64,000 bases of DNA, taken from Promethearchaeota archaeon (lineage in GTDB: Archaea; Asgardarchaeota; Hermodarchaeia; Hermodarchaeales; Hermodarchaeaceae). Position numbers and translations under genes: made by a program. The notes under the pieces were generated by a model. It searched no databases. It saw nothing but the letters and a program-made list of their open reading frames with translations, and had not been told where the DNA came from. The DNA lies in contig JBHLMG010000001.1 of NCBI GenBank assembly GCA_048938385.1, positions 224,001 to 288,000 on the forward strand, written 5' to 3'. Below are positions 9,544 to 39,936 of this stretch, piece by piece; within the stretch, counting starts at the first letter, position 1, and each line of letters starts with the position of its first letter.

Positions 9544-10871
9544 AGGGTGATTCCTAATTTCTCCCAGAGGACTGGAACAACACGATTCAAGGCTTTTTCA
9601 ACCATTTCTGGCTTAATTGTCACTACTTGATGATTATTCACAATATGTTTGCCATTTACAAAGACATGCTCAACATCATGAGCGGTGCATCCATAGACGA
9701 TGTATCCATAGACTCCGGCGGGTAATATTGGGGTGACTCGTGGCTTGGGGTGAAGGATGACGATATCGGCGCGCTTCCCTGGTTCGATGGATCCGAGTTG
9801 GTCGCTTAATCCATAAATCTGTGCACCGTTTATTGTTGCCATTTCAATGACTTGTTGTGGTGTTGTCACTCGAGGATCGAGGTGGTGGACTTTGTGAATG
9901 AGGTACGCCGTACGAATGTTTTCGATCGCGTCGAAGATAAACCCGTCATTGCCTAAACAGACCGGAATCCCAAGCTCGTACATCTCTCGGACTGGGGCGA
10001 CACCGACAGCATTGTTCATGTTGCTCATTGGATTATGCGCCACTGTGGCCCCACTACCCCGAATTAATTCGAGTTCATCGCGGTTGATGTGAACACAGTG
10101 GGCTAGCACTACATCAGAACCGAGTACTCCGAGGTCAAACAGGCGTTCAATAGTGCGTTTATCGTATCGTTCGATGTTATGATAGACATCGATAAGCCCT
10201 TCACTAGTATGGATAGTAATCGGTGCGTGCAGTTCATCTGCTTGGGTACGAGTTTTTTGAATTAATTCATCACTGAGCGTAAAGGAGGCATGCAGACTAT
10301 ACATGCCATTTAGCAGCTCATCTGGGTTTTGCTCCAGTTTCTTTAGGAACCTAATGTTCTCTTTTAGTCCCCGTTCGCCTTCCTCCTTGGAGTTGCGTTC
10401 TGTCGCTTCAAAACCAAGGATGCCACGAATACCGACCTCCCTTACTCCCTTTGCTATTGCGTCTAATACCCCTTCTATTGAGTTAGGTCCTGAATATGTA
10501 TCGGCAAAACATGTTGTGCCACTTTTAACAAACTCGTAACATGAAGCTAAGGCGCTAGCATTAGCATCTTCATTTACGAAAGCGGTATCAACTTTCCACC
10601 AAATCCGGTCTAATATTTGTAAAAAATCCGTAGTGGGTTTAATATCGAGGGGTGCCCCTCGGAGCATTATTCCATAGAGATGCGTGTGCCCACAAATGAA
10701 CCCTGGCAAAACTATGCGGCCACGGCCATCAATTTCGTGATCGGCTCTATCCTTGATGTTTTTCCCGATTTTAGCGATCATCGAATCTTCAACAAGAACA
10801 TCGGTATTTTCTAGCACTTGCCGGTGTGCATTCATCGTTACGACGAGTGCGTTTCGAATCAGAATTTTCAT
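9540..10871 (-). CDS. ssnA: SsnA-like amidohydrolase
   Basis: PGFICGHTHLY, DFLQILDRIWWKVD, FEATERN..GLKENIRF, HASFT, HNPMSNMNNAVG all match SsnA-specific segments as I recall them. Confidence 0.8.
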   Translation of the reverse strand: MKILIRNALVVTMNAHRQVLENTDVLVEDSMIAKIGKNIKDRADHEIDGRGRIVLPGFICGHTHLYGIMLRGAPLDIKPTTDFLQILDRIWWKVDTAFVNEDANASALASCYEFVKSGTTCFADTYSGPNSIEGVLDAIAKGVREVGIRGILGFEATERNSKEEGERGLKENIRFLKKLEQNPDELLNGMYSLHASFTLSDELIQKTRTQADELHAPITIHTSEGLIDVYHNIERYDKRTIERLFDLGVLGSDVVLAHCVHINRDELELIRGSGATVAHNPMSNMNNAVGVAPVREMYELGIPVCLGNDGFIFDAIENIRTAYLIHKVHHLDPRVTTPQQVIEMATINGAQIYGLSDQLGSIEPGKRADIVILHPKPRVTPILPAGVYGYIVYGCTAHDVEHVFVNGKHIVNNHQVVTIKPEMVEKALNRVVPVLWEKLGITL

Positions 10872-36269: not shown

Positions 36270-37754
36270 CTAATGCTGTAGTGCTGTTGTAAGGAACTCT
36301 ACCAGTTTGCTAATTTTAACAAGCTGTTCGTCACCGCTTTTCATGTCACGGATCTTAACTGCGTTCTCTTCCAATTCTCGGGGTCCAATGATGGCTGCAA
36401 GTGGAATCTGTCGTTTACTTGCATCTTCTAGATGTTTAGTCAGTGACCATGAAAATCCGTTGAAAATCGTCCGGATTTTGGATGTTCGCAGCTGAGTTGC
36501 GATATCTCGACAAGCTGTTAATTGCTTCTTGGACACCGGAGCTAAGTAGACATCAGCTTGTGGAACCGGTGGTGGAAATAACTTTTTTTCCTCTGCAATT
36601 TCTAAAATTACGGTTTCACCAAAACCAAATCCTGTCCCAGGTAGTCGCTGTCCCCCAAATATTCCCACGAGATCATCATAGCGACCACCTCCGGCAATTG
36701 CCCTGGGTATCCCTTTTCCTTGATCCCATGCCTCGAAAACGATGCCTGTGTAGTAATCGAGACCCCGAGCAATTCCTGCATCGAATTCGCAACAATCCTC
36801 AATACCCAATTCTTCTAATTGTTTGGCTAGTTGTTTCAAAGGTACAAGATTTTTCTTAGTAGACTCATCAAGAGCAGGTTTGTTCATGGCTTCAAGGAAC
36901 TCTCTTGGCGTTCCCCGAATGCCTGAGAAATCAACGAGCTGTTCAGCTGCTTGCTTAGGAACCTTCAACTTCTTCAGTCTAGTAATTAGCGCTTCACGCT
37001 GAAGTTCTGGAAGCGAGGTCTTTAACTCTTCGACTTGCCTTGAACGAGGAAGTTTGAGATCTACTTGTTGTTTTCCAGCATAGAAATGCCGAAGTTTCAA
37101 CGCCCTGTCTTCTGCCTTCTTCCGTGGCATACCATCCTTTGTGAGTTTATCGATAATGGCTTCTTGTAAGAGTTTTTCGCGCTGATCCAAGACGCGAATG
37201 ATTTCGATGTAGTTGGTCAGTCCGAGTGATTCGATATAACTTTGGATTAAGCGACGGTCATTAATTCGAATTACAAAGTCTTTCACTGTGAAACCAAGGC
37301 TCAGGATGATAGCAGCTAATACATTAATGACTTCAGCATCTGCGGCAACATCTTCTGTTCCTAAGATATCGACATTCAATTGCCAAAATTCCTTGACGCG
37401 ACCTCGTTGAAGGGTCTCATCCCGGAAAACCCGTGAAATTGAAAACCATCGAATGGGGCGTGGGTAATATTGCTGCTGCGCGGACAGCATACGTGCAAGA
37501 GAGGGTGTTGTTTCAGGACGAAGAACAAGCTGTCGTTTCTTTCGATCAGTCACTTTGAAGGTTTCATCTACTAGCGAAGGTCCTGATTTAAGCTGATACA
37601 GTTCTATTGGCTCGACAATCGGGCACTCGTATTCGATGTAACCAAATAGCTTGGGAATTTCACGAAAGGCTTGAAGTATCCGATCAACCTTTTGATAGAG
37701 TTCTGGATAATAATCTCGGAATCCACCAATCGCCAGTTCTTTCCCGCGTTTCAT
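36270..37754 (-). CDS. hisS: Histidyl-tRNA synthetase
   Basis: GFRDY, LRPETT, motif 2 ..QRGR..EFWQ, ARGLDYYTG, GGGRYD, anticodon domain; true start near MKRGK (track ORF runs into the tRNA). Confidence 0.95.
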   Translation of the reverse strand: MKRGKELAIGGFRDYYPELYQKVDRILQAFREIPKLFGYIEYECPIVEPIELYQLKSGPSLVDETFKVTDRKKRQLVLRPETTPSLARMLSAQQQYYPRPIRWFSISRVFRDETLQRGRVKEFWQLNVDILGTEDVAADAEVINVLAAIILSLGFTVKDFVIRINDRRLIQSYIESLGLTNYIEIIRVLDQREKLLQEAIIDKLTKDGMPRKKAEDRALKLRHFYAGKQQVDLKLPRSRQVEELKTSLPELQREALITRLKKLKVPKQAAEQLVDFSGIRGTPREFLEAMNKPALDESTKKNLVPLKQLAKQLEELGIEDCCEFDAGIARGLDYYTGIVFEAWDQGKGIPRAIAGGGRYDDLVGIFGGQRLPGTGFGFGETVILEIAEEKKLFPPPVPQADVYLAPVSKKQLTACRDIATQLRTSKIRTIFNGFSWSLTKHLEDASKRQIPLAAIIGPRELEENAVKIRDMKSGDEQLVKISKLVEFLTTALQH

Positions 37755-37806
37755 CGTTGTCAACTCGCCAGCCAATCTCGTAAATATCCACATTGACATT
37801 GAAAAA

Positions 37807-37962
37807 TGGTGCCGGGACAGGGATTCGAACCCCGACCTAAAGCTTTCCGTATCCCAATTACAATGGGATTCCACAGGCTTCAATGCTGCCATTGCGCCTG
37901 GGCGTACATTACCAGTTTACACCATCGGGAGCCAATCAATTCTTGATCGGCCTTATCCCGGC
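37807..37962 (-). tRNA. tRNA-His(GUG) with three introns (8/9: 37954-37924; 15/16: 37916-37892; 37/38: 37870-37845), encoded CCA
   Basis: Removing 31+25+26 nt gives a 74-nt cloverleaf GCCGGGA UG GUGU AAUGGCA GCAU U GAAGC CUGUGGA GCUUU AGGU CGGGG UUCGAAU CCCUG UCCCGGC ACCA; each junction forms a BHB-type motif. Confidence 0.9.
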
Positions 37963-38144
37963 ACGGTGACCCGGCACGAGGGATTGTTGAGACGAACTCT
38001 TCCACAAAAACCTTTCCTATCTTTCCCTTCAAGTCAACCGTTGTAGGACTTTCTAGTACGGTGCTTGTTGCTGCTGAGGTGGGTGAAAACAGCGAAGCGG
38101 GTTCTGCTTCATCGATATTGAAACGATGACCCTGTCAGGCAAGG

Positions 38145-38453
38145 CTAAGCGATATCAATATTGTCGGAGGGAAATCCTAAATCACCAAGAATCCCTTTGA
38201 TGTTGTGCCGATGATCGCCCTGAAGGACGATGATTCCTTCTTTAGCGCTACCACCACATGCGCACTTCATTTTGAGCTTCGTGACAAGCTCTGAAAGCGA
38301 GATGTCTCGGCTGTTAATACCTTCAATTAGGGTGACTTCCCGCCCCCATTTCCTCCGCTCGACACTTACTTTAATTCGTTGCTCTGTCTTCGCCAATTCC
38401 TGGCAGCGACAAATATCTTTGGGCAAACTGCAAATAGGGCAAATTTCTGACAT
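38145..38453 (-). CDS. Translation initiation factor aIF1/SUI1
   Basis: CPIC.LP...C.C, RKWGREVT, LK..CACGG, LQGDH. Confidence 0.95.
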   Translation of the reverse strand: MSEICPICSLPKDICRCQELAKTEQRIKVSVERRKWGREVTLIEGINSRDISLSELVTKLKMKCACGGSAKEGIIVLQGDHRHNIKGILGDLGFPSDNIDIA

Positions 38454-38958: not shown

Positions 38959-39936
38959 TCAATCACCTTGAGGGAGTGAACCGGTGCCAAGTAATTGGGA
39001 TAGCTGGCTCAGGGAGGAAATACCACGAATTTCGTTAGGAAACAAAGGAACTTCAGTGATGGTGAAATCATCATAGGTATCATGAATTTGGGTAAGGTAT
39101 TGCTGTTGCATGGTTTTTCGGGCTCGACAAAAACTACAATCTGGAATATCTGGAAAAAGCATGTTGACAATGATGTGACTGCTTGGGATTTCAAACTCAT
39201 AAAGAGCTTGTAAAAGTCTTTCAGTTTCAGCTACTGCCATGGCTTCAGGGATCATAACAATGACAAAGCTTGTTCGTGAAGGATTACTTAGTTCCGTTCG
39301 TGACATGGAAATATTCTTTTTGAGTTGTTCAAGCTGTTCAAGCGATTTATCTTCCTCAGAGTCTCCACGACCAAAGACGGATTTCAAGCGTCCGAAGATT
39401 TTACTAAATCTCAATCGGAGTTTGATGATTTTTCCAAAAAAACTATCCAGCATTTCTGGAAGCCCTAGTAACCTAAGTGTATGTCCTGTGGGTGCAGTGT
39501 CGAAGATCACCAAATCATACTCGCATTCCTGAATGAATTCAAGAACTTTAGAGAATGCTAAGGCCTCATCAGCTCCTGGGGCATTCATATCCATAAGATC
39601 GTCAAAGCCCATCATTCCCCCCATTGGACCCAGGTCAACTGGTTCTGATTGCCGTGTTACTTCTTTATACTCTTCAAAGGCTTTCTGTGGATTTATCTCC
39701 ATTCCATAGAGATTCCTTACTCCCTTGATAGGAATTACTTCGCCTCCGCTAAGGTTCTGATCGAAACTGTCACTCAAACTATGCGCTGGATCCGTACTGA
39801 TGACCAGCGTTTCACGTCCATGTTCTGCTGTCCATAATGCTGAGGCAGCAGCACTACTTGTTTTACCTACACCACCTTTCCCGCCAAAAAGAAGGAACCG
39901 TAATGACTCTTTGTCAAGCAATTCACTGAGGGTCAT
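38959..39936 (-). CDS. Get3/TRC40-type ArsA-family ATPase
   Basis: GGKGGVGKT, STDPAHSLSD, DTAPTGH; single domain, Met-rich groove, TRC40-type insert, C-terminal CSFC. Confidence 0.88.
   Translation of the reverse strand: MTLSELLDKESLRFLLFGGKGGVGKTSSAAASALWTAEHGRETLVISTDPAHSLSDSFDQNLSGGEVIPIKGVRNLYGMEINPQKAFEEYKEVTRQSEPVDLGPMGGMMGFDDLMDMNAPGADEALAFSKVLEFIQECEYDLVIFDTAPTGHTLRLLGLPEMLDSFFGKIIKLRLRFSKIFGRLKSVFGRGDSEEDKSLEQLEQLKKNISMSRTELSNPSRTSFVIVMIPEAMAVAETERLLQALYEFEIPSSHIIVNMLFPDIPDCSFCRARKTMQQQYLTQIHDTYDDFTITEVPLFPNEIRGISSLSQLSQLLGTGSLPQGD

Follow-up and report, generated by a model that had tools for sequence, protein, structure and literature searches.

A tRNA-His gene with three BHB-type introns and a conserved leader copy of its first exon in an Asgard archaeon

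The 64-kb stretch of DNA analysed here (the window), from a Hermodarchaeia-like Asgard archaeon, carries on its minus strand one tRNA-His gene that is divided by three BHB-type introns at positions 8/9, 15/16 and 37/38 (Table 1). This arrangement had been proposed in an earlier note made from the sequence, and in-silico splicing, covariation among relatives and intron-less orthologs all agreed with it. That note overlooked that the leader contains a second, conserved copy of the 5' acceptor strand, followed by a spacer able to pair with G9-U13. Comparison of related sequences established the existence of the gene, its exon junctions and the conserved structures of its introns. The gene is very probably functional and apparently the only tRNA-His(GUG) gene, with a precursor that would be spliced by a BHB endonuclease and RtcB.

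Structure of the gene, its introns and the splicing machinery

ARAGORN identified the 74-nt product of joining the four exons in silico as tRNA-His(gtg), with pairing in all four stems. The product forms a class I cloverleaf with a GUG anticodon, in which exon 1 pairs with the 3' acceptor strand at 7/7 positions. In unspliced form the gene was missed by standard scanners, as had been expected: ARAGORN reported no tRNA in the whole window, and a search of Rfam returned nothing at gathering thresholds (17.9 bits for the tRNA model, with a cut-off of 29).

Table 1. Features of the tRNA-His locus, in window coordinates, and of two tRNA-Leu loci, in contig coordinates. Precursor numbering starts at 37962.
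Feature	Location	Strand	Evidence or conservation
BRE/TATA promoter-like element GGAAAGGTTTTTGTGG	38002..38017	minus	conserved in 16/16 family orthologs
Spare copy of 5' acceptor strand, GTGCCGGG (tRNA positions -2 to 6)	37970..37977	minus	
Spacer TCACC, complementary to exon 2 (G9-U13)	37965..37969	minus	
tRNA-His(GUG) gene, 156 nt, four exons and three introns	37962..37807	minus	
Exon 1, GCCGGGAT, tRNA positions 1-8, precursor bases 1-8	37955..37962	minus	invariant in 16/16 orthologs
Intron 1 at 8/9, 31 nt, precursor bases 9-39	37924..37954	minus	
Exon 2, GGTGTAA, 7 nt, positions 9-15, precursor bases 40-46	37917..37923	minus	invariant
Intron 2 at 15/16, 25 nt, precursor bases 47-71	37892..37916	minus	
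Exon 3, positions 16-37, precursor bases 72-92	37871..37891	minus	in-silico splicing and ARAGORN; 20/21 columns invariant
Anticodon GTG, in exon 3	37874..37872	minus	
Intron 3 at canonical 37/38, 26 nt, precursor bases 93-118	37845..37870	minus	
Exon 4, positions 38-76, precursor bases 119-156; T arm, 3' acceptor strand, A73 and encoded CCA (37809..37807)	37807..37844	minus	36/37 columns invariant
T5 run directly after CCA, likely terminator	37802..37806	minus	function suggested by sequence; kept in genus
hisS, histidyl-tRNA synthetase	36270..37754	minus	Pfam PF13393 (9e-50) and HGTP anticodon-binding domain
tRNA-Leu(CAA), 189 nt, several introns including 8/9 (locus L057/L058)	G000 contig C46, about 10185-10420	minus	
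tRNA-Leu(UAA), single 8/9 intron, spare GCGGGGG, 34-nt spacer (locus L074)	G000 contig C23, about 187400-187600	minus	

All three introns showed the BHB geometry of 3-nt bulges, a 4-bp helix and a cut after the second bulge base, with the pairings that the earlier note had drawn. In minus-strand bases, the central helix of intron 1 joins C3-G6 with CCCG between bulges A7 U8^A and A U^G. The inner stem has 10 bp with one bulged G, and the outer helix is either weak or supplied by the leader. Intron 2 pairs G10 U11 G12 U13 with GCGC, with bulges AA^A and AA^U and an inner helix of CUGG:CCAG; it is a relaxed motif without an outer helix. Intron 3 is canonical, with a central helix of CUGU:ACGG and bulges GG^A and AA^A, and forms a full hBHBh' motif whose outer helix is the anticodon stem. 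The central helices of introns 2 and 3 were missing from the minimum-energy folds, and the BHB folds sat 13-20 kcal/mol or more above the minimum free energy, a gap that we take, by assumption, to be a property of an energy model that penalises bulges.

A pattern search of species-representative genomes gave 16 loci in Candidatus Hermodarchaeota/Promethearchaeota MAGs, Ca. Hermodarchaeum yapensis among them. By DNA search the locus was present in 13 of the 14 other genomes of the genus (one of these matches is short and covers the 3' end only) and in 4/4 of the sister genus. We aligned 12 full-length genes of the genus, the window's own included; another gene was split over two contig ends. 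All three introns were present in these 12 genomes. The exons were invariant or nearly so (71/73 columns), and the mean pairwise identity was 59% in intron 1, 91% in intron 2 and 69% in intron 3. The three-BHB model paired 97.2% of the cells of the alignment, compared with 37-45% when the partners were slid. Two-sided changes were found at nine pairs, 7/8 in the inner stem of intron 1 and 2/6 in that of intron 3. The central helices remained 96-100% paired across the 12 species, with changes on the intron side only that kept the pairing: the helix of intron 1 was 100% paired, and that of intron 3, which varies on its intron side, was still paired in 95.8% of cells. Intron 2 occurred in all 16 family genes with its central and inner helices 100% paired, the single change in them being one-sided, U.G to U-A.

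The sister genus supplied orthologs in which introns are missing: intron 2 alone is found in L016 and L017, introns 2 and 3 in L014, and introns 1 and 2 in L015. In the three that lack intron 1, exons 1 and 2 are contiguous, with GCCGGGAT joined to GGTGTAA, and in the three without intron 3 (L015, L016 and L017) CCTGTGG is joined to AGCTTT, both of which are the predicted junctions. The ortholog at L016 scored 46.4 bits on the Rfam tRNA model. In the window, GAT stands at both ends of intron 1, which leaves the junction ambiguous; this was resolved by the relatives, since the 3' bulge of the intron reads AA^G in most genus genes (AT^G in the window) and only a junction at 8/9 then keeps U8. 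At L015, the central helix of intron 1 contains a G.A mismatch. Metatranscriptome contigs of relatives (four runs) cover 37785-37926 unspliced and without joints, and such contigs cannot decide splicing.

The gene lies in an ordinary context, with no mobile-element genes adjoining it. Its upstream neighbours, also on the minus strand, encode a SUI1/eIF1-family translation factor and an ArsA/Get3-type ATPase (38145-38453 and 38959-39936). Judged by the archaeal promoter consensus, the conserved BRE/TATA-like element presumably acts as the promoter.

The genome encodes an EndA alpha-like protein of 186 aa, whose best PDB match is the Aeropyrum pernix alpha subunit (3P1Z_B, 6e-46) and which keeps the Tyr/His/Lys residues. 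It also encodes a beta-like paralog of 204 aa that, like beta subunits, has no catalytic His, and RtcB (3e-174). What we take to be the site of the crenarchaeal-specific loop aligns without gaps in the alpha-like protein. Homology suggests, for both assembly and substrate range, a two-subunit EndA type able to cut relaxed motifs. This type cuts such motifs in characterised archaea (PMC5829648, PMC4033280).

The earlier note had also pointed out that G10-U11 is needed by both the outer helix of intron 1 and the central helix of intron 2, and had concluded that splicing is ordered. The two bases are indeed shared, but an order is not implied, since the competition involves no more than the optional outer helix of intron 1, the central and inner helices that form the core of each motif can exist side by side, and the enzyme type takes relaxed motifs. 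In the outer helix drawn in that note (G-2 U-1 G1 C2 with G10-U13), three of the four pairs are G.U and one is G-C. The spacer helix described below is stronger, and either of them excludes the central helix of intron 2. Ordered splicing is thus possible but not required. Kinetics would favour non-simultaneous removal of the introns, because four cuts at once would leave the 7-nt exon 2 held by 4-5 base pairs. Removal of closely spaced introns in sequence has already been described, and tRNAscan-SE 2.0 removes them iteratively (PMC8450103).

A leader copy of exon 1 accompanies the intron at position 8/9

Ahead of exon 1 the leader consists of GTGCCGGG, the 5-nt spacer and GT; the spacer is GCACC in most relatives. 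Across the 12 species the copy had a mean pairwise identity of 94%, whereas the flanking leader and intron 1 had 59-60%. Every copy could pair in full (100%) with the 3' acceptor strand, the sole substitution, C to U, leaving a wobble pair. The helix between spacer and exon 2 was paired in 98.3% of cells, with changes at three of its five pairs, on the spacer side only, that left them paired. In every leader helix the exon side is invariant and two-sided covariation is absent, and the spacer helix leaves a 4x2 internal loop, not a clean 3-nt bulge. RNAfold predicted the leader helices unaided in 10 of the 12 species, as did RNAalifold on the alignment; the unguided fold joins the copy to the 3' acceptor strand, the spacer to exon 2, and exon 1 to the 3' end of intron 1. 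The copy probably lies within the transcript, if transcription starts where we infer that it does. At L010 (genome G009) both copies are perfect GCCGGGAT, 5 nt apart, and the sequence alone cannot tell which is used.

In the intron 1 motif, acceptor positions 3-6 pair with the 3' CCCG of the intron, and by taking these bases the motif excludes the normal acceptor stem. A central helix of 4 bp is set against an acceptor stem of 7 bp and could not compete with it unless the 3' strand were otherwise occupied. We compared fixed structures in the 12 species by nearest-neighbour energies. With the copy paired, the intron 1 motif fold was 6.5 kcal/mol better than the true acceptor-stem fold (12-species mean); with the 3' strand left free, it was 10.2 kcal/mol worse.

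We incline, with no great assurance, to the view that intron 1 is handled through pairing of the leader copy and the spacer. The locus would be transcribed from the BRE/TATA promoter into a precursor of about 175 nt, in which the copy would pair with the 3' acceptor strand and the spacer with exon 2. Such pairing would free exon 1 for the intron 1 motif, supply an outer helix and tether the 8-nt exon after cutting. The tRNA-splicing endonuclease and RtcB ligase would remove the BHB introns at 8/9, 15/16 and 37/38. Once the exons were ligated, the spare strand would give way to the true acceptor stem, and the leader would be cleaved off by RNase P.

The copy could be read differently, as the real exon 1, with either a longer first intron reaching to G9 or a fourth intron made of the 15 nt between the copies. 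The mature tRNA would then begin at the upstream copy, and splicing between equivalent positions of the repeat would yield the same mature sequence; in the congener L010 both copies do read GCCGGGAT. We consider this very unlikely. Copy position 8 is C in 11/12 genus genes and in L015 (with G, T or A at position 7), and C8 would destroy the near-universal U8, whereas the downstream copy is invariant in 16/16 genes. Moreover, no inner helix lies beside the upstream copy, and the 15-nt segment fits no geometry of 3-nt bulges and a 4-bp helix.

The leader copy is present wherever intron 1 is (the whole genus and L015) and absent from the three genes without it. A conserved promoter element, GGAAAG-N-TTTTT, lies 28 nt upstream of the copy in the intron-1 genes, and in genes without intron 1 it is the true exon 1 itself that lies 28 nt from the element; this equal distance indicates that the copy is the displaced original exon. 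The copy and exon 1 are 5 nt apart in the genus and 10 nt apart in L015 of the sister genus. By this comparison, the series of spacer, new exon 1 and intron 1 apparently behaves as one inserted unit, and a spare copy at the exon-1 site of intron-less orthologs can be taken as the footprint of the origin of the 8/9 cassette. A blastn-short search of the genome, with the leader and each of the three introns as queries, returned no related introns at other sites and thus gave no sign of intron transposition.

It is tentatively suggested, as a possibility that we take seriously, that the leader copy is a dedicated cis-acting splicing helper at 8/9 and that the unit records an insertion which duplicated the 5' exon. 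Co-occurrence of copy and intron is also expected from a common origin alone. The copy might accordingly be a neutral scar of the cassette event (insertion or duplication) without any role in splicing, intron 1 being a relaxed motif that is cut with the 3' acceptor strand unpaired or breathing. We regard this as credible but rather doubtful. A scar accounts for the copy's place at the ancestral exon-1 site 28 nt from the promoter, for its gain and loss together with the intron and for the decay of copy positions 7-8 in most species. It sits poorly with eight leader bases that are 94% identical beside neighbours at about 59%, with a sole substitution that preserves a wobble pair, with calculations that put the splice-competent fold 10 kcal/mol above the acceptor-stem fold when the copy is left out, and with copies that are gene-specific in three genes.

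The other two of these genes encode tRNA-Leu and belong to the same genome (G000). Among the 33 tRNA genes obtained by our scan, an insertion directly after U8 and a leader copy were found in tRNA-His only, and the tRNA-Leu cases came from a separate search for repeated 5' strands. The tRNA-Leu(CAA) gene has a spare GCGGGGG, a spacer of about 33 nt and an exon 1 of GCGGGGGT. The 3' CCCU of its intron pairs with positions 3-6, which places the intron at 8/9 again. Copy and intron were present in 11 of the 12 genus genomes searched, with the copy invariant. In genome G002 (L068) the gene has neither the copy nor the 8/9 intron, and its exon 1 follows the upstream context that precedes the copy in the other genomes. 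The tRNA-Leu(UAA) gene gave an Rfam match below threshold only. The two tRNA-Leu genes are paralogs and so not fully independent cases. What was found has the form of a stand-in strand, namely a gene-specific, conserved copy that occurs only with an intron using the 5' acceptor strand.

Two other candidates were rejected. The leader copy is not a promoter element: a motif shared between promoters is excluded, since the copy always matches the acceptor of its own gene (GCCGGG for tRNA-His, GCGGGGG for tRNA-Leu). The palindrome GTGCCGGGGCAC is absent from four tRNA-His orthologs and from the tRNA-Leu genes, and was dropped as a conserved feature.

An apparently single tRNA-His gene beside hisS and its identity elements

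A second tRNA-His gene, which the earlier note had named, in combination with an unexpressed locus, as a finding that would speak against its reading, was looked for and none was found. ARAGORN with introns allowed reported no tRNA-His in the genome (a 2.48-Mb assembly of 51 contigs, 89.8% complete). A custom scan for any T arm and matching 7-bp acceptor stem up to 330 nt apart showed that only the present gene puts GUG in the anticodon loop. Furthermore, a DNA search gave no second candidate in any of the 16 genomes of the two genera.

The start of hisS lies 52 nt downstream of the tRNA-His gene, both genes being on the minus strand, and this synteny is kept at every family locus (16 genomes, two genera). 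At L005 (genome G007), the hisS match falls into two adjoining pieces in different frames, divided at about residue 161/163, which a small insert or a frameshift error of the MAG could explain.

With one tenth of the genome unassembled, the functional tRNA-His might lie in the missing part, and the gene described here might be a decaying tRNA pseudogene with insertions. The completeness of 89.8% allows for this, the canonical G-1 and C73 are missing, and the three-intron tRNA-His of Atabeyarchaeia-1 was flagged as 'possible pseudo' by its authors. A decaying gene is nevertheless extremely improbable, given exons that are invariant while the introns drift with compensatory changes across 12 species, the same single gene adjoining hisS in 16 genomes of two genera, and the lack of a second candidate in the DNA search of these 16 genomes.

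All 16 family tRNA-His genes have A at position 73 and T at position -1, apart from one species with A at -1, so that the canonical His identity pair of G-1 opposite C73 is absent. The comparison drew on the window (37807-37963, minus strand), on loci L002-L017 and on L047-L050. Thg1 (PF04446) was not found in any of the 19 family genomes searched; elsewhere among Asgard archaea it was found in 5-6 lineages. An encoded G-1 and C73 are present in the tRNA-His of Atabeyarchaeia and of another Asgard family, as seen in a phylum-wide pattern search for tRNA-His 3' halves that yielded 10 matches only. These may be archaeal tRNA-His molecules without G-1, as far as the genes tell, or G-1 might be added after transcription by some other enzyme. 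A retained extra pair U-1:A73 was considered and dropped: T is the commonest base at -1 (roughly 18/31 tRNA genes) and one congener has A-1. As T-1 is common to most tRNA genes in the genome, it probably does not represent a retained base. Some alpha-proteobacteria, Acanthamoeba and Trypanosoma are documented to have lost G-1 (PMC3064791, PMC3561963, PMC4338351), and archaeal tRNA-His typically has C73 according to a review (PMC3245924). In the literature compared, we found no archaeal precedent for A73 combined with the absence of both an encoded G-1 and Thg1. With hisS adjacent, it should be easy to study how this tRNA and its synthetase co-evolve.

Comparison with known systems and the hidden tRNA set

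Triple-intron tRNAs were known to the earlier note from Thermoproteales. The host here is an Asgard archaeon and does not belong to the Thermoproteales, and Asgard genes with 3-5 intervening sequences have already been published. In three complete Asgard genomes, 92-95% of tRNA genes have introns, with up to four per gene, and a three-intron tRNA-His of Atabeyarchaeia-1 is listed (Valentin-Alvarado et al. 2024, PMC11291895). A census of 90 Asgard genomes reported up to five intervening sequences per gene, about 30% of which are missed by tRNAscan-SE in three intron-rich focal families (Goswami et al. 2026, bioRxiv 10.64898/2026.10.13.758758). The present gene shares with these the phylum, several short introns that are mostly non-canonical and often in the D arm, boundaries compatible with BHB motifs, and the failure of standard callers to see it. 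It has an Asgard host and three introns, two of them non-canonical, that are conserved in 12 species, and is itself a new example of the published Asgard multi-intron phenomenon. Unlike our case, the portions of PMC11291895 and bioRxiv 10.64898/2026.10.13.758758 that we compared neither name Hermodarchaeia nor describe a leader copy of the 5' exon.

The introns of Thermoproteales likewise number up to three per gene and include relaxed HBh' motifs that are cut by a heterotetrameric EndA; there too, neighbouring introns may have overlapping motifs, so that one may have to go first. They differ in belonging to another phylum and in that members of intron families have spread from gene to gene, whereas the genome contains no paralog of any of the three introns described here. 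One reported intron lies as close to the 5' end as position 3/4, and 8/9 is not among the Thermoproteales positions in the parts compared of the reviews (PMC4090602, PMC4033280).

Trans-spliced split tRNAs of Nanoarchaeum equitans and Caldivirga maquilingensis resemble the proposed arrangement in that sequence outside the tRNA pairs, holds the pieces together and builds a BHB for EndA. They use complementary leader and trailer extensions. Here, in contrast, everything is in cis on one transcript, and the helper would be a copy of the tRNA's own 5' strand that pairs with the 3' acceptor strand. The nearest precedent for a left-over 5' fragment with a new intron is tRNA-Thr(GGU) of Caldiarchaeum subterraneum (Sugahara et al. 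2012, PMC3293823), in which an intron was gained and an upstream 5' fragment left behind. That fragment lies 1.8 kb upstream across a recombinase-bearing element, whereas the copy described here is 5 nt away, has no such element and is conserved. A full-text literature search found no description of a leader copy, and we could not find described the variant of an 8/9 intron that invades the acceptor stem together with a conserved stand-in strand.

The series of genes with and without each intron, along with three genes sharing the 8/9 design, provides a clean comparison. An intron at the junction of acceptor and D arms would be possible if the leader supplies a substitute acceptor strand, which would be the displaced original exon, and this yields a testable mechanism for both splicing and intron gain. 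[quoted passage not shown] If true, the order of old exon copy, spacer, new exon 1 and intron would address that route.

Neither ARAGORN nor Rfam sees genes of this kind, and as a result the genomes of this clade will seem to lack tRNA-His and several other tRNAs. With standard tools, genome G000 showed no tRNA genes for His, Gln, Lys, Met, Phe or Trp; its tRNA set is largely hidden by introns. Intron-aware methods that include the flanking sequence would remedy this. Genome-wide, the number of tRNA genes called in G000 ranged from 22 (Rfam, above the cut-off) to 32 (ARAGORN, some of them dubious), and many of its tRNA genes encode CCA.
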